NCBI GenBank assembly: GCA_963514005.1
Contig: OY740826.1
Location: forward strand, 2,728,001-2,792,000
Source: Raja brachyura
Taxonomy: Eukaryota
Direction of reading: 5' to 3'
DNA: 64,000 nucleotides
In this document: piece by piece, positions 900-52,692 of the stretch
Position numbering within the stretch: position 1 is the stretch's first letter
Layout of the letters: the number at the start of each line of letters is the position of its first letter
Made by a program: the position numbers and the translations under genes
The notes under the pieces: generated by a model
The model's input: only the letters and a program-made list of their open reading frames with translations
What the model was told of the DNA's origin: nothing
Database searches by the model: none

Positions 900-1033
900 C
901 TGAGGAGAGAAGGAACAATCTTTAGCAGTGAACACCCTGTCAGTTCACTGGGCTTTCCACACCTTTTATCCTGCGCTGTGGACCTGGTGTGAACAGAGCG
1001 TAGAAGAGCGGCATGGTGGCGTAGTGGTAGAGC

Positions 1034-20383: not shown

Positions 20384-22373
20384 GCCAATAAATTCAGATA
20401 GCTATGGCAAGGATGTGGCTCCCCCGACACAGGGTTAGTGACCAATTGTGGGCAACCCTCTAAGAGGACCCAAGGCTGACTGATCATGTCAAAGACCACC
20501 GGATACCATGGTGGTCAGTCGGGTATAATAAGAATGCCCTTAGCAGCATCCATCTGGATTTTCTGCAATACCCGACTGATGAGGCAAAATGGGGGGAATG
20601 CATAGAAAAACCAATTCCCCCAGTCCAGCGAGAATGCATCCATCGCCATTGCACCAGGATCTGGTTCCCACGAAACGTATGTTGGTACCTGATGGTTCAA
20701 CCGTGACGCAAAGAGGTCGATATCCGGTTTACCAAATTTAGCTGTAATTTTAGCGAAGATTTGAGGATGCAACATCCACTCGATGTTGTCATTAAACTTG
20801 CGTGACCTGGTGTCTGCCACAGTATTGAGCTCACCTGGTAAATAGGTAGCTGAAATCCAAATATTCCGTTGAATACACCAGAGCCAAATTGTATTAGCCA
20901 ATTCATCACATGAAATTGATCTGGTACCGCCCATATGGTTTAAATATGCCACCGCAGTGGTATTGTCTATTTGGATACGGACATGAGCGTCTGTAAGATT
21001 GGAACAATAAGCTCGAAGTCCGTGAAATGCTGCAAGCATCTCCAAATAGTTTATCCCTTGTGACAACAACATAGTAGATTCAAGGGTGTCCCATCTTCCC
21101 CCGCAACTGGAGTAGTTGTCCGTAGCTCCCCAGCCATAGGAGCTTGCATCGGTTTGCAAGTATACCATCGGATTGGGCACAATAATGGGTTTAAATGAGT
21201 CACTAATATGGTCCACCCACCACTGTAACTCAATCTTAGCTTTAAGAGGCAGCTGCATTGATCTATCGAAATGACCGGCGTTCTGTTTTAACGCAGAGAT
21301 CTTGGCTCTTTGCAAATTTTGATAATGCAAAGGCCCATATTGGGCTGCTGGAAACAATGCTACGATCTTGCCAATCACCTTAGCAGTTTGCCTAATTGAT
21401 GGTATACTGGCACAGGCTAAATCTTGACATGCTTGGGTGACATCCCGAACCTTGTTAGCCGGTATGGTGGCCCTCATGCGATTGGAATCCACAGTGAACC
21501 CCAGATAATCCATAACCTGTGAAGGGCAGAACTTCGATTTATCTGGATGGACAATAAACCCCATTTCCTGAAAAAGTGCCACAGTGGCTGAGACTACATG
21601 TTCAGCCGACTCCAGGGTGTTGCCAACAATCAATATATCATCCAAATAGGCCATCACTATATGATGTTGCTTCCGTAGCCTGGCCATAATGGGTTTCAGT
21701 AATTTAGTAAACAATCTAGGGGCGGTAGTAAGCCCATTTGGCAAAGCCCTGTATTGCCAGAGTTGATCCATCCAGACAAATTTTAAGAACTTCCTGTGGT
21801 GTTTCCGAATGGATACAGAATAGTATGCATCTTTTAAATCAATGCATGCCATAAAGCAGCCATGAGAAAGCAATGACTTGGCTGTTTCGAAAGTGTCCAT
21901 TTTGAAATGGGTGTAAGTTACAAAAGTATTCAAATGGGTCAGATCAATAATAACCCGACATCCTACATCCTTCTTGGGCCTGGTAAATATATTTGATACA
22001 AATTCAATTGGTTCGTGTATAGTTTTTTCTATCACGCCTTTTTCTTCTAACCTTAAGATCTCAGCAAGCCTGCTGCCTGGTCAACGGCAGACAGTGTAAA
22101 TGTCCGATTGGGCATATACTGGGATGGAAGAATGTCGCCGTTAATAAATTCAATTTCATGACCTTGAATACTTTGTAAAATAAATTTATCGGAAGTGATA
22201 GTTTCCCACGCCTCCAAGAAAGACCGAAGGCGCCCACCAACATGTGAAGTTAAACACACAGGTACATGAAAACCAGACCGCCTTACCTTCCTGGTTACCG
22301 GCAGTCCCTGACATGTTTGGCGGGTCGTGGAGGTGCTGGGTTGGGCTGGTGCTGTGGCGTCCGCATCTTCCAC
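20370..22373 (-). pseudogene. DIRS-A RT-RNaseH-DNA adenine methyltransferase-like ORF
   Basis: CIDLKDAY, LPNGL and AYLDD (RT); TDASSYGWG, INYLEM and QIDNTTA (RNase H); DIDLFAS and YAFPPF (MT-like). Frameshift at about 22040-22053 and a TGA replacing Trp at 20515-20517. Confidence 0.92.
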
Positions 22374-24091: not shown

Positions 24092-24342
24092 CCAACTTAA
24101 GGTTAGTACAACTTACCTTAGCGGTCCCTTATGAAGGACTGGCGGGGAGCGCACCCCACCGCCAGCCGTCGACAGCAACGCGTTGCGATGATATGTCGCG
24201 CATATATGCTGGCGGGTTCTTCACGAAGTCACTCACGTGACTCCGAAATGAAATCCCAATTAAATACATTTACGTTTGTGGTTGTAACGTGACAAAATGT
24301 GGAAAAGTTCAAGGGGTATGAAAACATTTGCAAGCCACTGTA

Positions 24343-29742: not shown

Positions 29743-31537
29743 TACACAATAAATTGCAGTGAAATGAACTTGCCAGCAGCGGTACAATAAAAAAAAGCAC
29801 ACAATACACAATAAAACATTTAACACAAACATCCACCACAGCATTCATCACTGTGGTGGAAGGTACAAAGTTCAGTCAGTCCTCCTCCATTTTCCCCCGT
29901 GGTCGGGACCACAAACCTCCACAGTCGCCGCTGCGGGTGGCCTGATGTACAGGCAAGGTAAGTCCCGAATCGGTGCTTCCCTACCGGAGACCGCAGCTTC
30001 AAGATGTAGGCTGCAGGCCGGCAGTCTAAGATCTAAGTCCCCGCCGTGCCACAGTTAGAAGCACCGCAGACCGTGGCTTCTAGATGTTGTATCCCATGGG
30101 CCGGCGGTCGGAGACCTTCTCCAGGGATCCCCGGCGAGGGATCCCGTTCCGGATGGTAAGTCCCCGACGCGCCCGCGGTTAGAAGCACCGCCGAGCGCAG
30201 CTTCAAGATGTTGTAGTCCGCAGGCCAGTGGTCGGAGGTCTTCTCCGGGATCCCCAACGAGGGATCCCAGGCTCCGGACGCCGCACCAGCTGGAAGCTCT
30301 GCAGACCGTGGCTTCAGGCTGCCATGGGCCAGTGATCAGAGCACTCCCTTCTGGCGACCTCTGGCGAGGGTTCGCCCACTCCGCGACGAAAAAGTCCACA
30401 GCGCACCCGCTGCTGAAGCTCCGGGCCCTACTCCGGGAAAGGCCGCACCAATCCTTGGTGTTAGGTCACGAGGGAGGCGATATGGAAAAATGTGCCTCCC
30501 CATGGAGGAGGCGACCAAAAGCTGCTCCCCCCTCTTACCCCTCCCTCACCACCCCCTACACAAGACACACCGACAGACATTAAAACACACATTTGGACAT
30601 ACCAAAAAACCCCAAAAAAAGTAGAAATGACTAGCACGCTGCTGGCAGGGCAGCCATCTTGCAGCGCCCCCACCAACCTTTCTTCTATCAGGGCTGGGGA
30701 CTCAAGAACCAGAGGACTTGGGTTTAAGGTGAGCGGGTAAAGATTAAATAGAAACTTGAGGAGCAACTTTTTCACTTACTTGGGGGAGGGTATGTGGAAC
30801 GAGCTGCCATTATATACATTAATTGGCTTGGTATAAAAGTTAAAATCGTTCCTAGCGTAGGATAGTGTTAGTGTGTGGGGATCGCTGGTTCCTGCGAACA
30901 TAGTGGGCCGAAAGGCCTGTTTCTGCGCTCTAAACTAAACTAAACCATTAACAGTGTAGGAAGGAACTGCAGATGCTGGTTTAAACCAAAGTTAGACACA
31001 AAATGCTGGAGTAACTCATTGGGATAGGTAGCATCTCTGGAAAAAAGGAATGGGTGACATTTCGGGTCGAGACCTTTCTTCAGACTGAATCAGGGGAGAG
31101 GGAAATGAGAGATATAGACAGTGAAGTAGAGAGATATAGAACAAAAGAATGAAAGATATGCAAAAAAAAGTAATGATGATAAAGGAAATAATGTTGGCTG
31201 TGTCTTAGGTGAGAACGAGAAGCTGGTGCGACTTGGGTGGGGGAGGGTGGAGAAAGAGAGAGAGAGAATGCAGGGGTTACATTAATTTACAGAAATCAAT
31301 ATTCATACTGGACCGAGAGGGAATGGGTGACGTTTCGGGTAGAGTTCCTTCTTCAATGACAGCATTGATGTGCAGCGGGATCTTGGAGTCCAGGTTCACA
31401 CCTCACTGAAGGAGGCAGCATGACTAGATATTGTTTGTGGTGTTGAGAGAGCCGGGTTCGGCAGTGACCACTCAGACATTCACAGTAACACGGTGAACCC
31501 AGGTGCTTTATTCTATTTACACCGGTAAAAATGTCCA

Positions 31538-31557
31538 CGGCCACATGGGGGCGCTGT
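31538..31557 (+). promoter_or_regulatory. Candidate CTCF site
   Basis: CGGCCACATGGGGGCGCTGT closely matches the CTCF core (GCCAsnAGrkGGCGC) in a short non-repeat island. Motif match only. Confidence 0.4.
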
Positions 31558-32404
31558 TCCTCACCGTCAGAGTGCATGTGTGAAGATGCTGGCAATCTGT
31601 GGCCGAGTGAGTTTGCTGACGACACCAAGATTGGAAGAGTTGCAGTGAGTAAGTAAGCTGTCGGAAGATACGGTGGGATGAAGATCAGATGCAGAAAATG
31701 GCGGAGAAATGGCAGACGTAGTTTAATCCGAGCAAGTGTGAGGTGCGCACTTTGGGAGGTTGAAGGCACAAGGAGAAAGTGTAGAGTTAATGGCAAGACC
31801 ATTAACAGCATTGATTTTTTTTTAGTTTAGTTTAGAGAAACAGCGTGGAAACTATGCAGCACACACTGGGGACAATTTACATTTATACTAAGCCAGTTAA
31901 CCATCAAACTGTACCTCTTTGGAGTGTGGGGGGAAACATAAGATCTCGGAGAAACACACACACACGTACAAACTCCCTACAGACAAGCACCTATAGTCGG
32001 GATTGAAACTGGGTCTCTGGCGCTGTTAGGCCAGATGCTGGTCATCTCGGGCTTGTCCCAACATCTTATTCCTGTGATCTTCAAAGGAGGAGTTGTGGCT
32101 ATCACAGGCTTCTTTCTGCAGTTCACCTTTGCCATAAACAGTGCTGACAGAGCAGATTTCTTCCTGGCAGCTCAACTTTTGAGCTTGAAGAAGTGATGAT
32201 AGCAGTCTCTCGATTATCCTGGCGGCCAGTCTTTGCCTGTGTGTGGGCTAGAAGAATCACTGGCACCTCAGGCTTGCCAAGGCCACTCTATAAGCCTGAG
32301 GTACAAGCCTTGTGTAGGCTTCTACCCAGCAGTCCAGACCTGGTCTTGGGTTTGGCCTTATGGCTCAGTCTTCCTTGAATCTGTGACGGAGGAATCGCAA
32401 GGAC

Positions 32405-32690
32405 GGCAGGGTGGCGCAGCGGAAGAGTTGCTGCCATACATCGCCAGGGACCAGAGTTAGATTCTGCCTATGGGTGCTGTCTGTATCGTGTTGACACATT
32501 CTCCCTGTGACCGGATGTGTTTCCTCCAGGTGCTCTGGTTTCCTCCCATATTCAAAAGACAGACAGGTTTACAGATTAATTGGCCACTGTCAATTGTCCC
32601 TAGTGTGTGGGATAGAACTAATGTAAAGGTGATCGCTGGTCGGCGGGGACTCGGTTCCTGTTTCCACATTGTATCTGGGAATTAAACTTA
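32405..32690 (+). mobile_element. tRNA-derived SINE
   Basis: Head GGTGGCGCAGCGGAAGAGTTGCTGCC, conserved core TGCTCTGGTTTCCTCCCA and CCTGTTTCC...TGTATCT tail. Confidence 0.75.
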
Positions 32691-33643
32691 AATGAAAACT
32701 CTGACTTCTTTTTCTTTCTGTCCTCTCCCGGTCTGTCCATCGGGTGAGAATGAGTGTGTTTCCGCCAGGGGCGATGAGGAGGGAGCACAGAGCTGTTTGT
32801 GGGTTGGGGGGGGGGGGGTGAGGAGGGAGAACTGCTCTTTGGGAGGGGCGGTGAGTAGTGAGCACAGGGCTGTTTGTGGGTGGGGGGGGGGGGGGTGAGG
32901 AGGGAGAACTGCGCTGTCGGAGGGGTGGTGAGCAAGGAGCGCTCCATTGTATTAGGGAGAGTGAGGGGGGAGAGCTACACTGTGGGTGGAGGGGGTGAAG
33001 GAGTGCCGTGTTGTGGGAGGGATGATGATGATGAAGCGCTGTTCTATGAGAGGAACTGTTCACTCCTTACCCTGTCTCCCCATCCCTCAGTCCCTCCTGA
33101 CTTCCCCTCAAACCCTCGTCCAACACAACTCAGACCCTCCTACCTACTGTCCCTCACAACAGTCTCTCTTCACGGAGTCCCGACTCGAAACGTCGCCTAT
33201 CCATGTCCTCCACAAATGCTGCCTGACCCACTGAATTACCCCAATACTGTGTTTATTTGTAATCCAGCATCAGCAGTTCCTTGTGTCTCGCCCTCATTTC
33301 CTGATGCCCTCGCTCTCCCTTCCGCCCACACTCACCGGGGTCCCACACACAAGCACTCGTCGCTCACAGCGAAGGAGTAGCAGGGTCCTCATCACAAGCA
33401 CATCATACACAGACTGGATAAACAGCTTGCATGAGCCGCGTGTGTATCGATGCAGCGTTGCTGAGGGTGATGCCGGCCGGCCTCAGACACATTCTCAAAG
33501 TATACCAGTGGAGTGAAATGGAAGGATCGAAGCAAGGACCTGGTCTCAGAAAGCATTTAGATTTCATGTAGGAGAAAAAAACTCATGTCAGCATGCATCA
33601 TTAGAAAAAAGCAAGTAAAAGGGAAGTCATATTTTCCACAAAC

Positions 33644-33767
33644 CCCAATGGCAAGCACGGCTTCATAATTCTGCTTCATGTTCTTATAACGGACCTTCAC
33701 CCAGTCACTTATTTCTTCAAACTCTTCCTTGGAAAGATAGCCAGCAATGTCTTTGAACGCCAACATC
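33644..33767 (-). CDS. PRDM9/SSX-type ancestral KRAB domain exon
   Basis: MLAFKDIAGYLSKEEFEEISDWVKVRYKNMKQNYEAVLAIG aligns without gaps to the PRDM9 KRAB ([40 protein letters not shown], recalled). Acceptor tttgtttttccAG at 33769-33768; likely donor GG|GTTTGT at 33643. Whether it is functional is unknown. Confidence 0.88.
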
Positions 33768-34162
33768 CTGGAAAAACAAACATTGATACACTTTGGTGCA
33801 TAATCTGAAATAATCAGATATTAATTCCAAAACTAATTTTAAAATATCAATTGTTTATTCAATACAGGACAATTCCAGGATAAAGTGTCAAGAACTTAAA
33901 ATAAAGGCTAAATTCTTCAGGACAGAAATGAGATATTTCTTCACTCAGAATATAGCGAGTTATTTTCTAGGGTTGAAATAAATCAGTTGTTAATTGCATT
34001 CCAGCAAGATCAAAATATTATTGATTCCATGAAGTAATAAACTGAATCTCGGTAAGAGAGGAAACTGCATTTAGGGTACAGGTCAGGCGTGATCTGCCTG
34101 AAAGGTCCAGACCCAAAATGTTGCCTGTAAAGATTCAAGATTGCAGCTTCCAGCCAACAAAC

Positions 34163-37100
34163 ATTTTACTTCGGAGTCACGTGAGTGACTACGTGAAGAC
34201 CCCGCCAGCACGCATGCGCGACATATCGTTGAATGCACTGCGAAGCGACAGGCAGGAGGAGCGTCGCTCCTCCAGCGCAAGTTTAAAAGTGGTCCGCATG
34301 TAAGTATTTACCATTCCTGAGGTAGTTGTCGGCTCTGTTAAGTATTTTTCTTACAGAGCGCACCACCATGCAATCAAGGACGAAGTCCAAACGAGCCGCT
34401 GACAAACTAGCTGCCGAGGACCATGAAGCAGGCAGCGGTCGAGTTCTCCAGGGCTGGTGATACAAACCGCAGCCCCCGACTTCACGCCGCTACAGCCCGC
34501 AGGTGCTCCTCAGACAGGCGGCAAAACCACCCGGAAATCGGGCAGGTCCGCTGACTCGGCTGAGTCCGGACTGGAGGACACCCCGCCGGCGGAAGCGACA
34601 GCGGTCGATTATCCCGCATGGAGCGGATGGTGGAGCAGTTGCTCCAACGTGACCTACTACAGCAGGGGTATGGTCACAGTGGGTCTCCTCGCAGACCCAT
34701 GGCTTCACCCTTTACAGGGCTGCCAAATGTCTCACCCTCCTCGCAGGGGAGCATAAGGTGTCAGAACTGGGCTGACTCTGAAGAGGGGAGTGTGGCTGAA
34801 GAAACACCAATGCTAGGGGTGCCAGAAGAGGAGCTACTGGGCATGGTATCAAAATTTGCGATGCCTACCCAAAAACGGGTGCCGTTGCAGCCGAAGTTGG
34901 CAGCCAGTATAAACTACATGGCAACGAATCAACTTCAGGAACAGGCCATTAATGACACCGCAGCCAAATACCTAGCTCCTGAGAATTGTGTCTCCCTCAA
35001 CTTGCCTGCAGTCAACAACCCCATCTGGGGTGACATGAGCCCTGCCATCAGAAGCCAGGAAGTAAAACTCCAAACAATCCTAAAACTACTAGCTTCTGGG
35101 ATTACGGTCGTTGCCAGGTCAGTGGATGGAGTGGAGATGCCGGAATAGCTACAGGATGCTCTGGCACTCCTCTGTAACACTCAGTTTGAGATCAATTGTT
35201 ACAGAAAGAGTGTCATCCGGCCTGCACTGAACCCCAAGTTCGCGGGGTTGTGCAGACCCAGCAATGCACAGCCGCCTACACTACTATTTGGGGACAACCT
35301 GCCTAAGCAGATAAAAGACCTCGATGAAGAGGCAAAGGCAATAGGCATGATATAAGTGCCGGCTGCCATCCCCATACCTGCGGTGACAGCACCCCTATGC
35401 ATCCACCAGCAGTCCACGCTACCACAGCGACAGAACACCTGCTGGTGAAAGCTCGAAGGCCATCCAACCTGCCCAACGGTCTTTTTTAGACCATGCCCCA
35501 GCACGGCCTTCCTGGAAGATGCGCCACCCCCACACCACAGCGCCTCCACCTCCCAGGAAACAAGGACAGAGGAAACCAACACAGCACCACCGGTAGGTGG
35601 GTCTGGTTGCCTCATGAACATTGCATGTTTAACCTCTTCACGGATTGGGGGACGATTGCACTTGTTTCGGGATGCATGGAGTTCTATAACTTCTGATCCT
35701 TTCATACTGCAAAGTATTCAGGGATACAACATTGAATTTGTTCACAAACTTCACCTTCCTGTTCAGCATACACCTAGTCAAAAGTTTGTGCTTTCACAGA
35801 AAGAAAAGACAGAAGGTCATGCTGAACTCTTAAGACTACATACGAAAGGGGTAATTGAGAAAACCAAAAATGTTTGTATCGAACATCTTCACAAAAAAAA
35901 ACACGGCGGATGCCGCATCATTATTGATTTGACACAACTGAATACTTTCGTGCAGTACGCCCACTTCAAAATGGAACCTTTTGTTACTGCCAAACAACTA
36001 GTTTCCAAGAGATACTTCATGGCTTGCATCGACCTAAAGATGCATGCTATTCAGTACCAATAGACAAAGATCATTGCAGATATTTGAAATTTGCCTGGAT
36101 GGGGCAGCTCTGACAGTGTAAAACGCTGCCTAATGGATTAACATCAGCACCCAGACTGTTTACAACATTATTGAAACCAGCTTTACCATGTCTCAGAAAA
36201 CAAAAACATATTGTTATGGCATACCTCGATGACATTTTAATTGTGGGGAAACCCTTGGAGTTGACCAAATTGACTGTCTCAGCCACTGAGCACTTATTTC
36301 AAAAACTGGGGTTTATCATCCATCCAGACAAATCCAAATTTATGCCTTCTACCACTATGGACTACTTGGGATTCACGATTGACTATGTTCATATGTCTGT
36401 CACTTTGCCACTGAAAAAAGCGTCAGACTTGATAGAAGCATGTAACAGCCTTGCTGGCATCAGTAAACCGTCTATTCGGCAAGTAGCCAGGGTAATTGGG
36501 AAGCTTGTGGCTGCCTTTCCAGCCACACAATTTGGGCCCTTGCATTACTAAAACCTACAAAGAGCAACATTTGCAGCACTCAAAGAGCAAAATTGCACCA
36601 TGCTGGCCATTTTGACAGGCCAATGCAATTACCAGCAAAAGCAAAATTGAAATTACAATGGTGGATAAACAATGCTCGACATTGCTCTAATCCCATTACA
36701 ATCACGAACCCCTCGGTTATACTACAAACTGACGCCAGCGCTCAAGGTTGGGGAGCAACTAATACCACCTCCAGTTGCGGTGGTAGATGGAATGCACATG
36801 AATTAACCTTACTCCCGGCACTGGGAATTAATCATCTAGAAATGCTGGGAGCATTTCATAGATTCCGGGCTTACTGTTCGGACATGCACCATCTGCATGT
36901 ACGCCTACAAATGGATAGTACCACCGTGGTGGCTTACATCAATCATATGGGTGGAATTAAGTCAATATCTTGTGATGAATTGGTCAATACTATCTGGCAC
37001 TGGTGCTAAGAAAGGAACATTTGGATATCAGCCATTTACCTTCCGGGTAAGCTAAATACAGTGGCGGATATCAGGTCACGCAAGTTTAATGACAACACCG

Positions 37101-38980
37101 AATGGATGTTGGACCACAAAGTGTTTGACAATATTGTAGATCGGTATGGAACACCAGATATCGACTTTTTGCATCCAGACTCAATCATCAAATACCAACA
37201 TATGTTGCATGGGAACCAGACCCTGGGGCAGTAGCGATGGACGCTTTCTCGCTGCACTGGGGGGGATTTGTTTTTCTATGCATTTCCCCCCTTCTGTCTC
37301 ATCAGTCGGGTCTTGCAGAAAATTCAACAAGACTCCACATCGGGTATTCTGGTTGTACCAAACTGGCCTACTCAGCCATGGTTCCCTGTGGTACTGGACA
37401 TGGTCTCAGAACCATGCATTCCAATACCCAAACGTCCGAGTTTACTGGTACATCCTGTGATGGGGGAGAGTCACCCATGCCATGACCGGATTAACATATT
37501 GGTTTGCAGGGTTTGAAAAGGCCACTCCTGGATTTCGGATTCTCGGACCAAACAATAAATATCATCACAGCATTGTGCAGGGAGTCGACCAGTAGACAAT
37601 ACGTCACTTACGTCAAGAAATGGGAGGTGTTTTGTACCAAGACAAACACCACATATAACACAGCCACCATTACAGAAATGCTGGAGTTCCTGGCAAGCCT
37701 TCATTTTGATCAAGGTTTCAGCTACAGTGCCATCAACTGTGCCAGGAGTGCCCTATCCTCATATCTCGGACTAGGTTTATATCATCTTGCAGTTGGGTCT
37801 CACCCCTTGGTGTCTAAACTTATGAGGGGTATTTTTAACTCAAATCTCCACAGGCCTAGATATTCCCAGACCTGGGATATTGGCATTGTGCTAACCATGC
37901 TCCGAGGGTAGGCACCAGTAACGTCTCTTTCCCTAGCCAAATTGACATACAAAATGGTAATGCTGATGGCACTTGTGACGGCGCAACGGGTCCAGTCCCT
38001 ACACAAGCTAAGTATGGACGCCATGGTTATAACCAACAATAAGGTAACTTTCTTCATTCAGGGGTTACTCAAACAAAACAGGCCTGGATCATCTGGCCGC
38101 AAGTTGGATTTCCTGGCCTATCCCGTAGACAGCAGCCTATGCATAGTGACCCACCTTTTACACTACATGGAGGTCACCAAGTGTCTCAGGGGCACGGAAA
38201 GGGCTCTGCTTATGTCACAAACGTCCTCATCACAGAGTCACCGTGTAAACTATTTCAAGATGGCTAAGGGTGGTTTTGGGTGCAGAGGGGGTGGACACTG
38301 ATGTTTTTAAATCTCACTCCACCAGGGCTACATCTACATTGGCGGCAAGGATGATGGAAGTTCCTATGGACCACATCCTTGCAACGGCGGGTTGGGCTAA
38401 TGAGAAAACCTTTCAGTGGTTCTATAATAAACCCATGGACGCACCTGAGATGTTTGCAGACACAATATTAAGTTCTGTATTATAATTTCCCCTAAGTAGG
38501 GTATTATTATTGTCATTTGTTAAATAAATACCCTTCTTGGTTTTCAGCACAGTTTCATGTCTGAAATACATTAACATACTTCCTCCATTTGTCATTATGG
38601 TAGTGTGTGAGCATTGTCTTCCTTCCAGGGCATGAAATCACAGCTTTGAAATCTTCACATAGTCACTCACGTGACTCCGAAGTAAAATAGTAAGATTAAA
38701 TGAGAACTTCCAGTTTGAAGTTTGATCTTTATTTTATGAGGCGTTACGATGAGGGATTACGTGCCCTCCGCTCCCAAACCCTCTATTATAAAGATCAACT
38801 GGTATGCTGGTTCTCTTATCTTACTATCTTAGTCAACTCTGTTATCTGTGATTTCACACCGCTGCTTTGAACAATGTCGCGCATGCATGCTGGCGGGGTC
38901 TTCACGTCATCCCTCATCGTAACTCTTCATAAAATAAAGATCAAACTTCAAACGGGTAAGTTCTCATTTAATCTTACTAT
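34163..38980 (+). mobile_element. Second DIRS1-like element, decayed (DIRS-B)
   Basis: Starts ATTTTACTTCGGAGTCACGTGAGTGAC and ends TTTAATCTTACTAT; ICR at about 38650-38770. Fragmented gag (34368-35500), RT/RH/MT (35614-37516; AYLDD, TDASAQGWG, YAFPPF) and YR (37504-38485; HSTRA, FQWFYNKP), with many stops and frameshifts. Confidence 0.93.
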
Positions 38981-39519
38981 CAGTGTCTACATTTCTGGCA
39001 ATGAATACAGTGACTATCATGGGCTTCCACTGCATTGAAGTCAGGAGCAGCACCCAGGGGCTGCTGCTAAACCGCTATTGTGAAAAAGAATAAGTTGTCA
39101 CAGATAAAATCGGAGATAATCAGCAAGCCAGGCAGCAACAACTGAGTGAATGTTTCATTCTTTCCTCACAGATGGGGAAAGTTGCCAGATAGAGACAGAC
39201 ATCTACAGGGATGAGGGAGGTCATCTGACTGGCCTCCCAGTTCAATATTAATGTCAGTGATCCACTCCAGAGCACAGGGAACTCATCCACTCCTCACTGA
39301 CACCATTTCCTGGGGTTGTGATGGTCTGAGATGGAGCAGCAGCATTTCCCCCGTTCCCAGGCCCACGGGAGGACATTTATCCGGCATCTTCTGCCCACTC
39401 TCCATGTCAAAGCTCCCTGGAGTCCTAGCTCCAAGCCCTGCATCCCAGACATGATATTGTCTCTTTCAGCAGCACTTCGGTCTCCCTTCCTGAGCTCAGA
39501 CACCCACTTCTCCTCACAT

Positions 39520-39735
39520 CACCTACTCTCACTCCTCCTCACTTACACACCCACACCTCGACTAAACCCCTCGCCTCAACCAATTCTCATGACTAAACCT
39601 CGCCTTCATTAAACTTCACCTCACACCTAAACCTCAACTCACTAAACTTCACCTCGACTAAACTTCACCTCAACTAAACCTCACACCTTGACTAAGTCCT
39701 TGACTTGACAAAACTTTACCTCACCTCAACTAAAC
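39520..39735. repeat. Low-complexity ACTAAACCTCAC-like degenerate satellite, continuing at about 43297-43706
   Basis: Irregular repeats of ACTAAAC and CTCACC motifs on both sides of the RTE/DNA-transposon nest. Confidence 0.75.
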
Positions 39736-39899
39736 GCCAAAGAAATCCATCCTTGTGGGGACATGGAACATCCGAACCGTGTTCCAGGCTGCCACAATTG
39801 CCAACAAATTGGTGCACAACAATCTCACTCCTGAGCTTGGCTGAAACAAGATGGACACAGTCAGGGGAGACCAAATTGGTCAGCGAGCAGTCCCTTATC

Positions 39900-40417
39900 T
39901 AGGAATGTAACAAAATGTTGAGATTTTAAAAAGCCGGTAATTTATCCCATCAGATAAAGCATAAAAGGAACTTTAATTTGACACATAATTCACTTTCATA
40001 TCTTCAGTATTAAAAAAGCTATGGCCATTATCATCCTCGGAAATTAGCATCTTGTTCCCTATTGCTTTTCCATTGACTTAACACAAAAGCTGTGACCAAG
40101 GACAGTAAAAAGCCAATCTTTCATAAAAATTAAGAGAACTGAATGATATTTTTCAGTTATTATAGATTGAAGCATTCTGAAACAAATATAAAACATCTTA
40201 CTTGGATGACCTGAAATTAAGCATATAATTAGCTAGTTACCTAATTACAAAATTGACAGATTTTTCTTCATCGACTAGCAGCCCGAGGAAATCCCTCTCT
40301 AAAAGCAGTATAAACCTACATTTTAATCCCGCCCCCCCCTCCCCCCAAGGCTCAAAGTTGCGCACAGCCAGTGGCAGATCTGCAGCGCCGCTGAAGGTAG
40401 TTTTTGTAAAATCGCTA
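39900..40417 (+). mobile_element. TAG...CTA TIR DNA transposon, copy A (internally deleted)
   Basis: TAGGAATGTAACAAAA...TTTTGTAAAATCGCTA; TSD is degenerate. Confidence 0.8.
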
Positions 40418-40468
40418 CTTTAATCTACTCTGGACAGGAAGAGCACTTAAGCATCGAAGGAGAAAATG

Positions 40469-43060
40469 TAGCAATGTTACAACATTTGAGATCTTAAAAA
40501 TCAAGTCTGCAATTTATCCCATCAGATAAAGCATAGAAAGAAGTTTAATTTCATTCCTAATTCACTTTCATATCTTCGGTATTAAAAAGGTTATGGCCAT
40601 TTTCAAACTCGGAAATTAGCATCTTGTTCCCCATTGCTTTTCCATTGACTTAACACAAAAGCTGTGATCGAGGACAGTCAAAAACCCATAACTTTCTTAA
40701 AAATCAAGAGAACTGAATGACATTTTCAGTTAATATAGATGGAAGCATTCTGAAACAAATATGAAACATCTTACATAGATGACCTGAAATGGAAGCATAT
40801 AATTAGTTAATTACCTAATTGTAGTTAATTACAAAATTGACCGTTGTGACTGAAATAGTAATAAACACCCAGACTACCTTGAAAATTCAAAAATGTGATA
40901 TTCTGAAGATCAGACCTTTAATATTATTGTATTATATGCTGTAAGTCCGTAACAGATAGGTAAATAAATTACAATTTCTAGCAATAGACCAAGTCTTTAT
41001 GGAGAAGATCAGTTGCTGCCTGGTACATTGGCAAATCATTATCAGTAGCATCATCATACTCCTCAGATTGTAAACAATAAGCAACTCTGTACACCTTGTT
41101 TTTCCTCAACTTTTCAATTTTGGCTACATTGTAAACTACAAGTTTTTGCTCTTCAAACCACGCATGACATGCCTTTCTGCCCACTACTTTCCCATTAAGA
41201 ATGTCCAGTAGATTCCATTTCTTAAGAAAAGGATATTTTCTTTAAATAGCCTAATAACAAACTGATCTGATTCACACAAGAATTCACAATATAACATGAT
41301 TTTTAAATCTCACTGTCATTAATTTATATGGCAGATGGAAGGAATTTAATGTTTAATTCCCACAAATAATCTAGAAACATCCACTCAATATAATTAAATT
41401 ATTATTTTTTTTACAATACATGGGACTAAAACTGATCTTTAGTATAAACATATTGACTATGAGTAGAAAATAACACAAAATATACACGATTTAGATGCTC
41501 TTATGACATAATTGTCCAAAAAAAAGCATTTAAATCATCTTGCGAGTGGGTTTTTCTGGAACGCGATCGATTGGAACGTTGCATTTGCGGTGAATTTGAA
41601 CTCCATATCGGCAGGAAAAACACGGCCGGTTCGTATGGGGCCTAAATCACATTTTCGCATCGTAACATTTGATTAAAGCCATCCCAAGAAGCAAGATTAT
41701 ATGTAAAATACACGACTTACATTTTGTTTTGTCCCTTTCATGTGATCCGTCACGTTGTAGGCGTTGAGGATGTTAGAAGTCGCTTGTTAATTTTAATGTA
41801 ATTATCAAATTGTCTCGCGATTAAATTAAAAAAAAATCTGGAACAGAAGTCGGATGGATAATTTTGAGCAGCTCGCAGCCCGAGGAAGTCCACCTCCGAC
41901 AGGCTGGAGAAGACGGCATTTTAATCCCGCCCCCCCCCCCTCAAAGTAGGTATGTTGCAAAACTTACCTTTAGCGGCGCTGCAGTTCTGCCGCTCCACTT
42001 GTGCGTGACTTTGGCGCCTTTCAGAGGGGGGCGGGCTTAAAGTGCCGTTATTTTCAACAGACCTGGATAATCGATGAATGTCGGGTGATTTCGTTGCGGA
42101 AGAAAAATCGCTCCGACATTTCATCAATAAAGGTATTTTTAAATTACTCTAAATTTTTTATTAACTAGAGTAATTTAAAAATCACCTTCAAAAGCTGTGA
42201 GCACTGACAAACGGAAGGATTTTCCGTAGGGCAGAAAAAAAGGTAAATAGTTTATTTTTATATTAAAAGTTGGTTTTTCGGGAGGCTTTAATATTATTTT
42301 TATGTTGCGAAATGGGGTCCCAAAAAATGTATGAACAAACAGTATTTTTCCTCCCGACTTCACTGCTAACCGCAACGTTCCAATCCACCGCATTCCACTA
42401 AAACCCACTCGCTAGTTGATTTAAATGGCCATTTATTTACAGGCAAAAAACACTAAATTCCTTCCATTTGGCCCAGAAATTCATGAAAATGAGATTTAAA
42501 AATTATGTTATATTGTGGGTTATTGTGTGAATGTTATTTGGACACTTAGGCAATTAAAAAAAAGTTTATCTTTTCTTAAGAAATGGATAAATGTTTAGAT
42601 CCACTCATTGAATTTTGTAATTAGGTACAATTAGATAACTAACTAATTATATGCTTTAATTTCAGGTCATCCAAGTAAGATTGTTTCATATTTGTTTCAG
42701 AATGCTTCAATCTATAACAACTGAAAATTTCATTGAGTTCTCTTAATTTTTAAGAAAGTTATGGGCTTTTAACTTTTCCAGATCACAGCTTTTGCGTTAA
42801 GTCAATTGAAAGGCAATGGGGAGCAAGATGCTAATTTCCGAGTATGAAAATGGCCATAACTTTCTTAATACTGAAGATATGAAAGTAAATTAGGTGTCAA
42901 ATTAAACTTCTTTTTATGCTTTATCTGATGGGATAAATTGCAGACTTGATTTTTTAAATCTCAAAATTTTGTAACATTGCTACTCAAAGGTGTCAAAGTC
43001 GTGCACACAGCCAGTGGCAGAACTGCAGTGCAGCTGAAGGTAAGTTTTGTAACATCACTA
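40469..43060 (+). mobile_element. TAG...CTA TIR DNA transposon, copy B (contains copy C and a coding remnant)
   Basis: TAGCAATGTTACAACA...TTTTGTAACATCACTA; TSD GAAAATG/GAAAATA; minus-strand ORF remnant at 40978..41184. Confidence 0.85.
41947..42982 (-). mobile_element. TAG...CTA TIR DNA transposon, copy C (nested in B, opposite orientation)
   Basis: Perfect 7-bp TSD CTCAAAG at 41940-41946 and 42983-42989. Confidence 0.9.
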
Positions 43061-43735
43061 GAAAATAGAGTAGGATTGGACACACCCTCAGGAAACCTGC
43101 CACAAACATCACCCGGCAAGCCCTGAAATAGAACCCCCAAGGGAAAAGGAAAAGAGGTCGCCCCAGGAACAGACAAATGTCTGAGAATCAGCTCAACTGG
43201 GGAGATCTCGAAAGAACTACCAACAACCGAGTGAGGTGGAAGACATTTGTCAATGGCCTATGCTACCTAGAGGAGCAAAGGGCTTAAGAAGAAGAACTAA
43301 ACCCCTCAACCACCTCGACCAAACATCACCTCAGCTAAACCTGACATCAGCTAAATTTCACACCTCACTAAATCTTGCTTCGATTAAACCCCTAGCTTCA
43401 ACTAAACCTCACATCAACTAAACCTCACACCAAACTACTCCTCACACCTAAACCTCGCTTCAATTAAACTCCTCACCTCAGCTAAACCTCACTGAAACTT
43501 TACCTCACTAAACATCGCCCCCAACTAAACACACCTCACTACTATATTTCACCTCACACCGAGACCAACTAAATCCTCACCTCAACTAAACTTGCCCTCA
43601 CTAAACCTCCCACCTCACAACTACACTTCACCTCAACTACACTTCACCTGAACTAAACCTAAACCTCAGCTAAATTTCACAACTGACCTCAGCTAAACCT
43701 CTCACCTCGCGCTCAATCGCCCGCGCGCCCCTCAC

Positions 43736-43900
43736 CTGACGATATATTTATAGCCCAACGGCGCCTCACGTGAGCGGAGCGGCTCCAACCAGAGCGCGGG
43801 TCACGTGGGCAGCTCGAGCCCTCGGCGGGAAAAGGCGCCAAAAGTCGTCGCGTGTCTCCCGCCATCCTCGCTTTCCCGCCATCCTCGCGGGTGGAGTGCG
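43736..43900 (-). promoter_or_regulatory. CpG-rich promoter and candidate first exon with E2F and E-box motifs
   Basis: Local CpG density; TCACGTGA (43766-43773), CACGTG (43802-43807), GGCGGGAAAA (43824-43833), GGCGCCAAAA (43834-43843), TCTCCCGCC (43855-43863) and TTTCCCGCC (43872-43880). Minus-strand donor CAG|GTGAGG at 43735. Confidence 0.7.
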
Positions 43901-44213
43901 TAGCCCTCCATGGAGTTGCTTTTACAGTGCAGCAGCTGCTGCTGTTGCAGTGTGGTGAAGCTTCTCCAGTTTAGCAACTCCTGCAGTGGAGCATCTCCTG
44001 CAGCAGCAGGGAAAGTTCAAGCCTCCACCATCTCCTCGGGCAGCGTGCCCCAGATTGCAACCACCCTCTGGGTGAGTTTAATCTCATACACGTTCGTTTT
44101 ATTGTTCTGTTATTGAGTATAGTCTGGTCTGCAGTTCCTTGTACCATCATTTTATTTTAATTCTTGACTCCAAATGCTACGTTTCCTCATCTGTTCTTGC
44201 CCCATCAGTGATG

Positions 44214-46309
44214 TAGCAATGTTACAAAATGTTGAGATTTTAAAAATCAAGTCTGCAATTTATCCCATCCGATAAAGCATACAAAGACGTTTAATTTGAC
44301 ACCTAATGCACTTTCAAATCTTCAGTGTTAAAACATTTATGGCCATTTTCATACTCCGAAATTAACATCTTGTTCCCCATTGCCTTTCCATTGACTTAAC
44401 ACAATAAGGTTCTGATCGACGACAGTCAAAAGCCCATAACTTTCTTAAAAATTAAGAGAACTGAAATACATTTTCGGTTATTATAGATTGAAGCATTCTG
44501 AAACTAATATGAAACAATCTTACTTGGATGACCTGAAATGAAAGCATATAATTAGTTAGTTACCCAATTGTAGCTAATTACAAAATTCAATTACTAGCAA
44601 TGTTACAAAATTTTGAGATTTTAAAAATCAAGTCTGCAATTTATCCCTTCAGATAAAGCATAAAAGGAAGTTTAATTTGACACCTAATTTACTTTCATAG
44701 CTTCAGTATTAAGAAAGTTATGGCCATTTTCATACTCGGAAATGAGCATCTTGCTTCCCATTGCCTTTCAATTGACTTAACTCAAAAGCTGTGATCTGGA
44801 AAAGTTAAAAATCCATAACATTCTTAAAAATTAAGATAACTCAATGAAATTTTCAGTTATTATAGATTGAAGCATTCTGAAACAAATATTAAACAATCTT
44901 ACTTGGATTACCTGAAATTAAAGCATATAATTAGTTAGTTATCTAATTGTAGCTAATTACAAAATTCAATGAGTAGATCTAAACATCTATCAATTTCTTA
45001 AGAAAAGATAAACTTTTTTTAAATTGCCTAAGTGTCCAAATAACATTCACACAATAATCCACAATATAACATGATTTTTAAATCTAATTTTCATGAATTT
45101 CTGGGCCAAATGGAAGGAATTTAGTGTTTGATTCCTGTAAATTAATGGCCATTTAAATCAACTTGCGAGTGGGTTTTAGTGGAATGCGGTGGATTAGAAC
45201 ATTGCGGTTAGCGGTGAAGTCGGGGGGAAAAATACTGGGGGTTCATACATTTTTTGGGGACCCCATTTCGCAACATTAAAATATTATTAATGCCTCCCGA
45301 AAAACCAACTTTTGATATAAAAATAAACTATTTACCTTTTTTTCTCCCCTACGGAAAATGCTTCCGGTTGTCTGCGCTCACGGCTTTTGAAGGTGATTTT
45401 TAAATTACTCTAGTTAATAAATAATCTAGAGTAATTTAAAAATACCACCATTCATGAAATGTCGGAGCGATTTTTCTTCAGCAACCAAATCGCCCGACAT
45501 TCATCGATTTGTCCTGCCTGTTGAAAAACGGCACTTTAAGCCCGCCCCCCTCTGCAAGGCGCGAATGTCGCGCACACGGGGAGCGGCAGAAGTGCAGCGC
45601 CGCTAAAGATAAGTTTTGTAACATACCTACAATTACTAGATCTAAACATCTATTCATTTCTTAAGAAAATATTAACATTTTTGTTAAAGCCTAAGTGTCC
45701 AAATACCATTCACACATGAATTGACAATATAACATGATTTTAAAATCTAATTGTCATTAATTTATAAGCCAAATTGAAGGAATTTTGTGTTTAATGCCTG
45801 TAAATTAATGGGCTTTTTAAACAGCTTGCGAGTGGGATTTTCTGGAATGCAATGGATTGGAAAGTTGTGGTTGCGGTGAATTTAAACCCTATATAGGCAT
45901 GTTCATATGAGGACTAAATCACTGTTTCGCAACATTAAATATTGATTAAAGTCCCCTAAACAAGCAAATGTATATGTAAAAATAAACAGCTTTCACTTAC
46001 CTGTCCCCTACGTAAAATCGGTCCCCGTTGTCGGCGTTCACGGCATTAAGAGCTAATTTTTATTTTACTGCAGCGCAGAAATAGTCGGGCGATTTAAAAA
46101 AAAAAAAAAAAATAATAATAATAATAATAACTTACCGGCAGTCGGAACGCATCTCCAGAAATAGATCGCACTCCGACAAAATATTATTCCGGATGGCAAG
46201 GGGAAAGCCGTATTTTAACCCCGCCCCCATCCTTAAAGGCGCCAAAGACGCGCACACGGCCAGCGGGAGAACTGCAGCACCGCTAAAGGTAAGTTTTGTA
46301 ACATACCTA
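44214..46309 (+). mobile_element. TAG...CTA TIR DNA transposon, copy D (contains copy E)
   Basis: Perfect 7-bp TSD AGTGATG at 44207-44213 and 46310-46316; internal poly-A/(AAT)n at about 46096-46128. Confidence 0.9.
44595..45629 (+). mobile_element. TAG...CTA TIR DNA transposon, copy E (nested in D)
   Basis: Perfect 7-bp TSD CAATTAC at 44588-44594 and 45630-45636; 1035 bp and very similar to copy C (1036 bp). Confidence 0.9.
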
Positions 46310-48267
46310 AGTGATGTCCCCTTGGTTCCACCAATCCACCCCAACCCCTCTCTACAACTTGTTTTTGTTCTTTTCTATTCTGGTGAAGGGTCTCTGATCC
46401 AAAACTGAACTGTTTCTTTCTCCAGAACTGCTGTCTAAACTGCTGAATTATTTTAAATGTCTTCTATTTTTATTTCAGATTTTTAGCATCTGCGATTCTT
46501 TACTTTACACTTTCAGTTTTTTGTTGTGACCTGCCAACAACGGATCAAAGGAAATCTGATATGTGATGTTGTAATCTACTGGGATTCAAGTAATTAGTAA
46601 GTGTTTCAATGGGAAGGTTCTACCTAGCCGGGATGGGCCCCCATTTTAGTTTTGTTTAGAGATTAGAGATACAGCGCAGAAACAGGCCCTTCGTCCCACC
46701 GAGCCCACGCTGATCACTGATCCCCGCTCGCTAACACCATCCTACACACACTCAGGACAATTTACACTTGTACCAAACCGATTATTCCTCAAATCTTTAC
46801 GTCTTTGGACTGTGGGTGGAAACTGAAGACCTTGACGAAAATCCACGCAGGTGATAAGTGATTGGAGCAGAATTAGGCCATTCGGCCCATCAAGTCTACT
46901 CCGCCATTCAATCGTGACTGATTGCTCCCTCCCAACCCCATTCTCCTGCTTTCTCCCCATAACCCCAAAATGTCTATTGGCTTGGCCTGCATAGCCTTCT
47001 GTGGCAAATAATTCCACAGAATCACCACCCTCCGAGCTGAAACATCACCATTACTTCTCTCCATTAATGTCTATCTTCGGGAAGAATACTGATTTATCTA
47101 ACTTCATGTAACCCTTTCATCCCCTCTCTCCCTCCCTTCCCTACCTATGTCATTGTACTACTTTCAAAGTCGTCTTGTTGTGTCTCATTGTCTGTAACTC
47201 ATTTTCACCAAGCTCTCAGCTAACAATGACCTATTTCCTTTATCATTGTTACATTTGTTTACATTTCTTTCATTCATTTGTTCCATATCTCACTATACAT
47301 TCAATTTCCCTCCTGGGATAAATAAAGTTCTATCGTATCTCGTATCATACAACCATCTATATCTCTCGTTGCCCCTTCCCTGACTCGACCCGAAACGTCA
47401 CCTGTTCCTTTTCTCCAGAGATGCTGTGTGACCCGCTGAGTTACTCCAGCTTTTTGTGTCTATCTTCGGTTTAAACCAGCATCTGCAGTTCCTTCCTACA
47501 TATAACATGTGTTAATTAGGTATACGGTGAGATTGTGTTGAAACTGTGATGTTTAAAACTTGCAGACTGTGGAAGTCAGAGCACCAGTTGTGACTGTGAG
47601 GCGTGGTGTTGTGTTGGAAGCACACAGATGGCCTGGGACAGAACACTTGCATTAGATGCATCAAGAAGTTGCTATGGAGAAGGTGCAGGACATTCCCCCC
47701 GGTTACAGCAGGGTTCCCTTCCTGGGAACCGTTCCCAAGCGGAACATGCGGCCGTGAATAGAGTTCCCATACGGCAGAAGATGCCTGTCGCCCTGCAGTA
47801 GCCGGTAAATCCATCCCACATCTCCCAGACACTGGCTCATGTGTACGGGCTGTAATTTAATGTGTCTGTAAGCTGGGGACGACCTACACCTCAAACAAGT
47901 CAAATCGGGGCTGGACAACGGTTCATTTTTCACGGTCATGTAGAAACAGACCCTTCGGCCCAACCTGTCCATGCTGATCAAGATGCCTCCTCTAAGCTGA
48001 TCCTATTTGCCCACGTTTCACCCATAGCCCTCTGACCTTTCTCATCCATGTACAAATGTCTTCGGAAAAATGTATTTTCAGATCAATGACCTTCATCAGA
48101 ACTGGATGCAGTCACATGATGTGGCCAGTTCTGATACAAACTGGAAAGGCTTGTTATCTGAAATTGCCCGTATTAATGACGACCTCAAGGATTGCACCAC
48201 ACGCTGAAGTGGTGCTGTTCCGCAAGATTTTGTCGGCTTCGTTGGAACAATGAGAATGGTTTAATCT

Positions 48268-48575
48268 GGGGCGACACGGTGGCGCAGCGGTAGAGTTGCT
48301 GCCTTGCAGCGCCAGAGACCCAGTTCGAACCTGACTACGGGTTCTATCTGTTCGGAGCTTGTACGTCCTCGCCGTGACCTGCATGGATTTTCTCCAAGAT
48401 TTTTGGTTTCCTCCCACACACCAAAGACATACAGGTTTGTAGCTTAAATGGCTTGGTATAACTAAATTCTCCCTGGTGTGTGTAGGATAGTGTTAATGTG
48501 TGGGAATCGTTGGTCACAGTGGACTCGGTGGGCCGACGGCCTGTTTCCGCATTGTACCTGTAAACTAAACTAAAC
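48268..48575 (+). mobile_element. tRNA-derived SINE, full length
   Basis: GGGGCGACACGGTGGCGCAGCGGTAGAG (A box)...GTTCGAACC (B box)...GGCCTGTTTCCGC...(TAAAC)3. Confidence 0.85.
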
Positions 48576-48629
48576 AATGCAGGTGAACTGATATTATGAT
48601 ATGCAATAGCCTGGAAAATCTGCAATTCA

Positions 48630-49066
<437 letters not shown>

Positions 49067-49209
49067 CTGATTAGCAGCAACAAAAAAGAGGTTGATTTGT
49101 CAATCGTAGTTGATGAACTGAGTGCGACAACCAGTCTGCATCACAACAGGACCGATCCCGCACAGTCAGAATATCCCAGTGGGAGCAGTTTAGGCCAGTC
49201 AGAAAATGC

Positions 49210-50850
49210 AGTCTGTATCTGTATCTATATCTTGACGTATAATCACCACCTGTTTTGTTTTGTGGATCCCAGACCAGGAGCAATACTGAAGTTTGGGTCT
49301 TATCAGAGTCTTGCAGGCTATACACTTGGTTCTGTTCTTGCAACAATAAATATTTTTCTCCTGCAATCCCAGCATTCTGTTAGCCTTGGTGATTCTTTGG
49401 TTGATATGCATAGACCATTTAAAATCACTGCTAAGTTCCACTCACATGTAGGGATGATGTTTCACCTGTTCCTGGGTGGAGTGCCCAATCTTGTACTTCA
49501 TGGTAACCGGTTTCCTCCTGTGGGTGACTCTCATACTGAAGCACTTGGAAGAATTGAAAGACATATGCCAATCTCCTTACCATTTGAGTAAAGCATCAAG
49601 GTCTTGTTGGAATCACTCCGAATCTTCAACGGATTGCATTCTATTAAAGGGAACACAGTAATCCGCAAAGAGTCTAACCTTTGAGTGGACCTTTGAAGGC
49701 AGATCATTGATATATGCCAAAAATAGTAGGGTCCCAGGACTCTGCTCTGGGGAATCCCCGATGAAACTTTAGCACTGTTGGAAGAAACACCCTCCATCAC
49801 AACCGGTTTGGAAGGAAAGAATCAATCCGTTTCAATGCGTTGTTTCTAATTCCCATGTGGGGAAGTTTCATCAAAAGACGTCGGTGGGGCACGGAATCAA
49901 ATGCCTTACTGACGTCCATGATGATCAGGTACGCCTGGCCTTTATCATCCATTTTGAGTACAGGCTCCTCTTTTTACAAATGTTTCTCTTGATGGAATTA
50001 TTTATCCAGGGTAATTTCCATCTCAAGGAAGTCATTTTGGAGGGTATAAATTTGTCCATAGCATTCTGAAAAACCCGTTTAAATTCAGTCACCAGCTCAT
50101 TAACAGTCTTTGACTCAATGTAGTCAGAAGTCAACTTCCCACCGAAGTTCCTGAACCTGTCCCCGATGTCTTCAAACTTGGCTTTCTTGCAGAGAAAAAT
50201 CTTGCGCAAGGCTGGCCAGACTAACTTAGGTTCCACTGATACGTTCACAATCACTGCCTCGTGGTCGCTGATACCAGAAATTCTGATGGTGAGCTGATAC
50301 TCACTCTGATGGTGAGTTTTTGAAACACACATCAAGGATGTTAGGTCCAGTCAGTTCCTTCAAGTGCAATTTCCAACATTGCTTTACTAGTTCCAGCAGA
50401 AGATCCACCTTGATTAACTTGAAAATTTCCCAGTCCACGTCAGGAAGATTGAAATCTCCCAAGAGTCACACTGAAGCTTGAGGTGTGGTTATGACGTTGT
50501 TGACATAAAAGATAAATGGAACAAGCTCACCAGCATGTCTTTAGTGATCTTCAAAGGTGAATCAAAAAAGGAGTGACATGCCCAGTGATCCATATCCAAA
50601 ATGGTGGACGGTTGAGTTGTGTTGCTGACGAGATGTCTAAAGGCATAAAAATCTTCTTTAGATGCACATATTTCAAAACGGCCAATGTAAGGTGTAGAAT
50701 CCCCATGGTTGATTGATGTCCAGGCCAAAGTACAGCGAATAAAAATTCCATTTACTTCATAGAAAAGTTAAAGCTCACCAATTTACACACCAGAAAATAC
50801 AGTGGCTGAAATCAAAATGGCTGACGGTGAAAGTCACAACTCTACTGCGC
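49210..50850 (-). mobile_element. Degenerate, internally deleted CR1/L2-group LINE distinct from the dominant CR1 family
   Basis: LGDFNLPDVDW, GISDHEAVI, FIPSK...LPWINNSIKR, VSSGIPQSRVLGP and KANRMLG...LIRPKLQY motifs; (GATACA)n-like tail at about 49211-49232. Confidence 0.75.

Positions 50851-51724: not shown

Positions 51725-52692
<968 letters not shown>

Follow-up and report, generated by a model that had tools for sequence, protein, structure and literature searches.

The window that we analysed is a stretch of 64,000 nucleotides (G000:C50:2728001-2792000) whose minus strand carries the 5′ portion of a PRDM9 gene. Window positions 33514-49214 are colinear with C9:82427336-82436170 at ~79-87% identity once insertions are skipped, and this colinearity with the 5′ end and upstream region of the C9 PRDM9 gene takes in decayed finger pieces at 48.7-49.1 kb. 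The C9 gene, which lies near the end of C9, has a promoter, a KRAB exon, exon 4, a further exon, an SSXRD exon, three SET exons and fingers, and 25 kb separate its KRAB and SET exons. In the assembly this SET-complete gene carries a TAG that may not be real, and a gap lies at C9:82604674. Its SET exons resemble those of shark proteins, which suggests a cartilaginous fish as the host. The features of the locus are as follows.

48686-49067 and 52177-52689, minus strand: decayed PRDM9 finger-exon pieces of the same duplicated block, upstream of the promoter
43759-43880, minus strand: PRDM9 promoter core, GC-rich, 85% identical to the C9 PRDM9 promoters
43705-43752, minus strand: TATAAA (43752) and two candidate first-exon donors, with GT at 43735 and 43705
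43321-43680: tandem repeat (unit ~16 nt), also present after the promoter of PRDM9 and of its copies, resuming at 39592-39684 past inserted elements
39899-43060: nested high-copy inverted-repeat elements, putatively MITE-like
39429-39452, minus strand: end of the likely ancestral start exon (ATG, 8 codons in total, phase 0)
34162-38979, plus strand: decayed DIRS-like retrotransposon of 4.8 kb, within the intron
33644-33767, minus strand: PRDM9 KRAB-A exon (124 nt) that has lost 2 nt at exon position 10 and gained 2 nt at position 123
33557-33766, minus strand: ORF of 69 codons from the accidental ATG, if the KRAB donor is read through
33482-33643, minus strand: KRAB intron remnant, up to a breakpoint at ~33482
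33193-33481, minus strand: PRDM9 3′ flank, ~730-1050 nt past the finger-array stop, 76% identical to C9:82373602-82373285
32030-32250: dispersed repeat with 378 candidates in the genome
31330-31715: high-copy repeat with 3400 candidates, containing AATAAA (31512-31507)

A preliminary description of this DNA had proposed a SET-less PRDM9 derivative with its own promoter, and both the PRDM9-type KRAB exon and the promoter prove to be real, with the SET exons missing. Judged by its sequence, the exon is an ancestral PRDM9-type KRAB-A exon, since a phmmer run of its translation against 1.84 billion representatives yielded 57 hits that are mostly PRDM9/7-like proteins of deer and sharks (14 of the 57 scanned). 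The ten hits that were looked up are named PRDM9/7-like or KRAB proteins from sharks or deer with 54-68% identity over the KRAB region. Its DNA is 87% identical to the C9 PRDM9 KRAB exon. The Pfam KRAB score of the translation is 15.8 bits, under the cut-off of 20.4, and a PDB sequence search with the KRAB region returned nothing significant (best match ZNF568, E 0.99).

The promoter core carries two CACGTG E-boxes (43807 and 43772) and three E2F-type sites (GGCGGGA/TTCCCGCC; 43880, 43863 and 43831), and matches 54 places in the genome, including the C9 loci. It thereby presents CACGTG and TCCCGC within a CpG-rich promoter, as do PRC1.6-type germline promoters according to the motif definitions of two mouse studies, neither of which mentions Prdm9 (PMC8639735; PMC8195999). 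The first-exon donor previously placed at 43735 does exist as CAG GTGAGG, but it is only ~12 nt past the TATA box and is missing from 9 of 9 aligned paralogous promoters. Should that TATA box be used, this donor would lie too near it to be included in the transcript, and the site at 43705 appears to be the better candidate for a first-exon donor.

Between the promoter and the KRAB exon lies an interval of 10 kb that is, as had been described, mostly composed of transposons. The DIRS-like element has RVT_1 and Phage_int_SAM_4 matches and terminal inverted repeats, and its site is empty in paralogs. An exon that had been suggested near 34124 turns out to be intron sequence common with PRDM9. At the C9 loci, the start exon reads MSGTQGSE and is followed by a gtcaga donor, which is gtgaga in the C51 copies; the ATG, the seven further codons and the phase-0 GT donor are kept at both C9 loci and in many copies. 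Shark PRDM9 N-termini gave no significant match to the 8-codon exon, and so its likely role as the ancestral start exon rests on its phase and its conservation among copies. In the window copy and its twin, the GT of this donor has become CT. The likely ancestral coding route is broken twice in the window, by the lost donor at 39428 and by a stop at codon 17 of the KRAB exon when read in the ancestral frame.

The KRAB acceptor at 33767 reads ttccag/G ATG TTG GCG TTC on the minus strand, which bears out the observation that an ATG sits one base into the exon, and the 3′ end of the exon reads ATT GGG/gtttgt at 33644. PRDM9 and most copies open this exon with four codons read in phase 0 (ag/GAT GCT GAC CAT TTC), with the ATG out of frame, and leave it in phase 1. 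The 2-nt deletion at exon position 10 puts the ATG in frame, and the 2-nt insertion at position 123 turns the exit phase to 0; each is present in the C50 pair only (2/71 copies), and neither PRDM9 nor any of the remaining 69 copies has the ATG in frame. The in-frame ATG is an accident of this private deletion. Contigs of unrecorded kind from three runs (at most two samples) cover introns and repeats. In runs X1 and X2, contigs span the deletion with no gap, and thus it is not an assembly slip, unless those runs are the source of the assembly. The insertion is known from the two copies in the assembly and is bridged by no listed run contig. At the position of the ATG, one X1 contig (depth 13) reads ATT, whereas ATG is found in X2, which comes from the same sample.

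From the new ATG, the KRAB frame runs for 41 codons without a stop. Possible products have 69 residues (read-through), 55 residues (acceptor at 33539) or 74 residues (acceptor at 32380), and the three tails that were tested are short and unrelated. Word-index protein searches found no homologue with the length of the 69-codon ORF.

Downstream of the KRAB exon, an internal deletion with its breakpoint at ~33482 joins the KRAB intron to PRDM9's own 3′ flank. The 33 nt at 33514-33482 were considered as filler and rejected, as they are intron sequence common with sister copies. Neither of the two downstream stretches previously called non-repeat islands fits that label: 33481-33193 is the PRDM9 3′ flank, which has 31 genome matches, and the 32030-32250 part of the second is the dispersed repeat listed above. 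The CG GTGAGT donor noted in the first of them is present at 33333, within a conserved CCCG GTGAGT. The minus-strand AATAAA is likewise present, but it lies inside a high-copy repeat, and this hexamer occurs on the minus strand at 0.6 per kb. A stretch wider than 31330-31715 is common to C51 copies at 81-88% identity.

The preliminary description had found no SSXRD, PR/SET or finger exons downstream and had suggested a profile scan for them, and a scan with the genome's own PRDM9 exons, run over the 264 kb of C50:2.588-2.852 Mb, agrees: exon 4, SSXRD and the SET exons gave no match there. The SSXRD query was the exon of this genome, which scores 17.8 bits with Pfam SSXRD at C9. The same 264 kb hold no intact finger array downstream, and contain only the decayed upstream pieces and their twin copies. 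A genome-wide Pfam SSXRD search returned no matches; because it also missed the real SSXRD exon of C9 PRDM9, this result was dropped as evidence. A search with PF21549 for SET gave 60 genome matches, none of them on C50 or C51.

The KRAB exon belongs to a large family. Its peptide has at least 114 matches in the genome (101 at E<0.001), from which 71 exon copies were recovered and examined. Of 24 matches to the third SET exon, a single one, at C9:82387058, is whole and of PRDM9 type. The PRDM9 3′ flank lies downstream in 25 of the 71 copies, within 250 nt in 21, and nearly all of these are on C51. In a tree of 57 distinct rows, built from the exon and 170 nt of intron, the deletion-type copies form 18 distinct rows on one side of a branch valued 89/68 (not starred), which is compatible with what may be a single origin. 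The C50 copy branches first in this group and has its longest end branch. The window copy has a twin 92.2 kb away that is 99.88% identical over 12.5 kb and could reflect either recent tandem duplication or a haplotype duplication in the assembly; a Siglec-like gene is copied along with the locus in this 92-kb block. On C51, KRAB copies adjoin NLR genes, an adjacency that prompted us to consider a KRAB-NLR fusion there.

We measured selection by pairwise and distinct-allele counts among copies within this genome. Between the window exon and the PRDM9-linked exon at C9:82626668 there are 11 non-synonymous and 3 synonymous differences, and nine comparisons gave pN/pS values of 0.63-2.95, with two lacking any synonymous change. 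Mean pairwise pN/pS was 1.08 across the full set of 49 distinct exons; it was 0.92 among deletion-type exons (15), 1.04 among open-frame exons (29) and 1.06 among exons of both kinds at once (11). Of the distinct alleles, a share of 0.21-0.25 was synonymous, compared with a neutral range of 0.21-0.245. No purifying selection on KRAB is evident from these counts, although a test of 111 nt has little power for a single copy or for a few constrained copies. An open phase-0 frame and the acceptor are kept in 41 of 71 copies; the other 30 have a stop, a frameshift or a lost acceptor.

Relative to introns, divergence is lower for the KRAB exon in 23 of 34 comparisons (means 0.106 vs 0.131) and for the promoter in 32 of 34 (0.076 vs 0.131), where the comparisons share one branch and are not independent. 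The promoter motif columns hold 30 extra alleles in 43 columns and the other columns 69 in 79. An unmethylated, CpG-rich promoter mutates slowly without selection. Since the motif columns are hardly steadier than the others, the low divergence may reflect such a slowly mutating promoter rather than selection. The open 41-codon frame, together with the lower divergence of the KRAB exon and promoter, was counted against a pseudogene verdict, as was the fact that the ATT allele comes from a single contig.

We consider it most likely that the locus arose as a duplicate of the 5′ end of PRDM9, has lost the middle and finger exons through deletion, and is now a non-coding pseudogene, possibly transcribed; it is a truncated PRDM9 copy and not a new KRAB-only gene. 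Because its promoter and introns are colinear with those of C9 PRDM9, it is a genomic duplicate and not a retrocopy, and it retains the promoter and introns of its parent as unprocessed pseudogenes do. Disabling lesions and neutral divergence, the usual marks of a pseudogene, are both present: the window copy has lost its start-exon donor and has two 2-nt indels, transposon insertions and the internal deletion. The reading that the preliminary description held only as a fallback, a pseudogene, is thus the one favored by the deletion, the lost donor, the private indels and a pN/pS of ~1.

In the order of events that we propose, PRDM9 would have been situated near a chromosome end, in DNA prone to duplication, and its 5′ end would then have spread to ~100 places via segmental duplication. 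One copy would have lost everything from exon 4 through the finger array and become the founder of a C50/C51 subfamily, after which the window copy would have decayed further. Germline transcription of the truncated copy is plausible given that the E-box/E2F promoter core is the least diverged part of the locus. Factors of the MAX/MGA and E2F types would still recognise the promoter, which may be active in germ cells. If a peptide of 55-74 residues is made from the new ATG, it would be an unselected by-product. The stop of the 55-residue form is ~160 nt before the 33333 donor, and a stop well before a used donor is a decay signal; a transcript spliced onward at 33333 would likely be degraded by nonsense-mediated decay.

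An unlikely alternative is that the protein is dead whereas the promoter has been kept, either for a germline non-coding RNA or as an alternative promoter for a Siglec-like gene reached via the 33333 donor. The candidate for such promoter capture, to which we likewise assign a low probability, is a Siglec-like gene 33 kb downstream on the same strand, onto which transcripts would be spliced from 33333. The low divergence of the promoter core is consistent with this proposal, as is the finding that the PRDM9 flank, the window copy and 7 recovered hits have the same 22 nt at the 33333 donor, and a Siglec V-set exon follows the nearest C51 copy at a distance of 19.5 kb, in the same orientation. 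However, the motif columns vary about as much as the others, one E-box is changed in the twin, and slow mutation may account for the promoter without selection. Furthermore, the Siglec-like gene has an ATG leader exon of its own, and the splice from KRAB to V-set is out of frame in the window copy. A KRAB-Siglec fusion was rejected for the window copy on account of this frame.

It is less likely still that the C50/C51 subfamily is an independent KRAB-only gene family of cartilaginous fish, in which a PRDM9 promoter drives a ~51-residue peptide and some members titrate PRDM9 partners. The anatomy for such a peptide exists, comprising the 8-codon start exon, the KRAB exon and a stop two codons into the intron. 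By hand count, this stop is present in 14 of 25 deletion-type copies vs 0 of 45 other readable copies, and the ATG exon, GT donor and open KRAB frame are all kept in 6 of the 25. Were it so, the window copy would be a decayed or re-started member of an SSX-like invention outside mammals, a notion that we regard as similarly improbable. Although a family of this kind is anatomically possible, the pN/pS values near 1 make it unlikely.

We give even less credence to a functional KRAB-only micro-protein that starts at the new ATG and competes for PRDM9's KRAB partners. The idea draws on mouse PRDM9, whose KRAB domain is required in meiosis and interacts with CXXC1 in two-hybrid assays (PMC5688218), and on the open KRAB frame, the ATG adjoining the acceptor and the intact promoter motifs. 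However, the ATG is in frame only in the window copy and its twin, an ATT allele is seen at that position, pN/pS is near 1, and the three possible tails are short and unrelated. Furthermore, WEK has become WVK and KRNY has become KQNY, at positions kept in shark and mammal PRDM9, and SSXRD is missing. The KRAB-only or SSX-like competitor advanced in the preliminary description is not supported for the window copy, given that the ATG is in frame in 2 of 71 copies, that the SSXRD exon is missing and that no purifying selection is seen. Neither a conserved start codon nor purifying selection, as a KRAB-only gene should exhibit, was found, with the caveat of low power for one copy.

That the exon instead opens the coding sequence of a longer KRAB-zinc-finger or PRDM9 gene, with the other exons far downstream, is highly improbable, despite the long introns of this genome (25 kb from KRAB to SET at C9) and finger remnants 73 kb downstream, because those remnants belong to the twin block, where they duplicate the decayed upstream pieces and hold stops, no PRDM9 middle exon occurs in 264 kb, the exon is already joined to the PRDM9 3′ flank, and its exit phase of 0 conflicts with the phase 1 of PRDM9 exon 4.

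As a truncated pseudogene, this single locus is of little weight alone, and the expansion of the family is more notable. PRDM9 paralogues usually number just a few per species, according to PMC8835667, in contrast to this genome, where the KRAB exon occurs in ~100 copies and the promoter has 54 matches, but a single locus is SET-complete. In the literature searched, which excludes most subscription journals, no description of a KRAB expansion of PRDM9 in rays or skates came to light; duplicates in rays may be listed in the tables of PMC5519329 and PMC8892340. The locus also illustrates that indels can produce a misleading ATG beside a KRAB acceptor, and that gene models labelled 'KRAB-only' or 'PRDM9-like' by automated annotation of sharks and rays may represent debris of duplication. 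Intact meiotic promoters, dozens of which are scattered among Siglec-like and NLR genes, provide raw material for new germline transcripts. The copies are also a natural example of a way in which KRAB might become separated from PRDM9, and the detached KRABs of this genome appear to be drifting.

Among known systems, SSX genes consist of aKRAB-A plus SSXRD and are described, in Lorenz 2022 (PMC8835667), as mammal-only and protein-coding. The window copy resembles them as a SET-less, multi-copy N-terminal fragment derived from PRDM9, but it is not SSX-like because it has no SSXRD exon, and it shows no coding constraint. The same work describes more than 200 aKRAB zinc-finger paralogues in coelacanth, usually single-exon, which likewise constitute a large expansion of ancestral KRAB outside tetrapods. 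In contrast, KRAB here is a separate exon amid PRDM9 introns, with no intact finger partner in the examined copies and a pN/pS of ~1, and it is not in frame with a finger array as in a KRAB-zinc-finger gene. Table S1 of that paper also lists two SET-less aKRAB models of bamboo shark, A0A401RS11 and A0A401RS19. Like the window, they have a PRDM9-type KRAB exon annotated without other PRDM9 domains, and A0A401RS11 is the closest to the window exon by identity (68%) among the 10 of 57 phmmer hits looked up. Unlike the window, they are automated models attached to unrelated sequence.

PRDM9 itself (aKRAB-SSXRD-PR/SET-C2H2) is likewise among the closest systems. The 124-nt KRAB-A exon is homologous, the promoter and introns are those of C9, and the shark PRDM9/7-like proteins XP_072326191.1 and XP_078093146.1 are 62-64% identical to the window over KRAB. 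Of the parts of a complete PRDM9, however, the window copy has KRAB, frame-shifted and with the start-exon donor lost, and lacks exon 4, SSXRD, PR/SET and an intact downstream C2H2 array. Duplication of PRDM9 is lineage-specific and has been noted for cartilaginous fish, and some duplicates, such as primate PRDM7, are under relaxed selection, as recorded in two surveys (PMC5519329, Baker 2017; PMC8892340, Cavassim 2022). The partial PRDM9 genes that these surveys describe have usually lost the N-terminal KRAB/SSXRD and kept SET under constraint. Measured against those descriptions, the window copy represents the opposite outcome, in that SET and the fingers are lost while an unconstrained KRAB exon is kept, and at a far higher copy number.

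Only one SET-complete PRDM9 locus was found in the R. brachyura genome (G000; C-numbers denote its contigs and L-numbers its loci), and the KRAB exon of this gene contains a TAG. A neighbouring PRDM9 copy has an open KRAB exon, together with exon 4, the SSXRD exon and two SET exons, up to the point where a 200-N gap follows.

G000:C9:82374333-82431132 (L071-L077), SET-complete PRDM9
G000:C9:82604674-82636044 (L080-L083), neighbouring PRDM9 copy

What the assembly shows is either a crippled PRDM9 or the working gene in mis-assembled form.

A second type of deletion is also present, in which the KRAB intron is fused to a portion of the third SET exon, followed by the finger exon, leaving a SET-less layout of KRAB plus fingers. 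The KRAB exit phase does not match the entry phase of the third SET exon, and the C9 copies carry frame-shifts.

G000:C9:82437617, second deletion type
G000:C9:82642766, second deletion type
G000:C123:17051, second deletion type
G000:C47, second deletion type at about ten places

The 92-kb tandem block on C50, which holds the window locus and its twin, has an identity of 99.3% between its two copies (G000:C50:2641137-2705648 versus 2733346-2797861), and one E-box differs in the twin promoter. The PRDM9-type promoter core is frequently arranged as an inverted pair with arms 100-300 nt apart (G000:C9:82431002-82431338 and C51:3452519-3452850, among others). This arrangement suggests a bidirectional promoter. 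The window promoter has a single arm of such a pair.

An additional KRAB subfamily occurs on many chromosomes (G000:C12, C20, C21, C31, C37, C38 and C40; L085, L117, L120-L124, L126, L127 and L129), frequently close to their ends. Its members mostly have two exons spaced 1.2 kb apart, with a frame-shift in the second.

Three Siglec-type V-set exons lie in the 264-kb block around the window. The window holds two DIRS-like retroelements with reverse transcriptase and tyrosine recombinase.

520-1014, minus strand, start of a Siglec/CD22-like gene (ATG leader exon at about 1014, V-set exon from 899)
19397-24112, DIRS-like element whose long open frames span 335 and 521 codons
34162-38979, DIRS-like element, fragmented

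NACHT (NLR) exons and promoter-plus-KRAB units alternate along one strand at G000:C51:0.98-1.08 Mb (L061-L070); for two KRAB exons, the distance to the NACHT exon downstream is about 17 kb.
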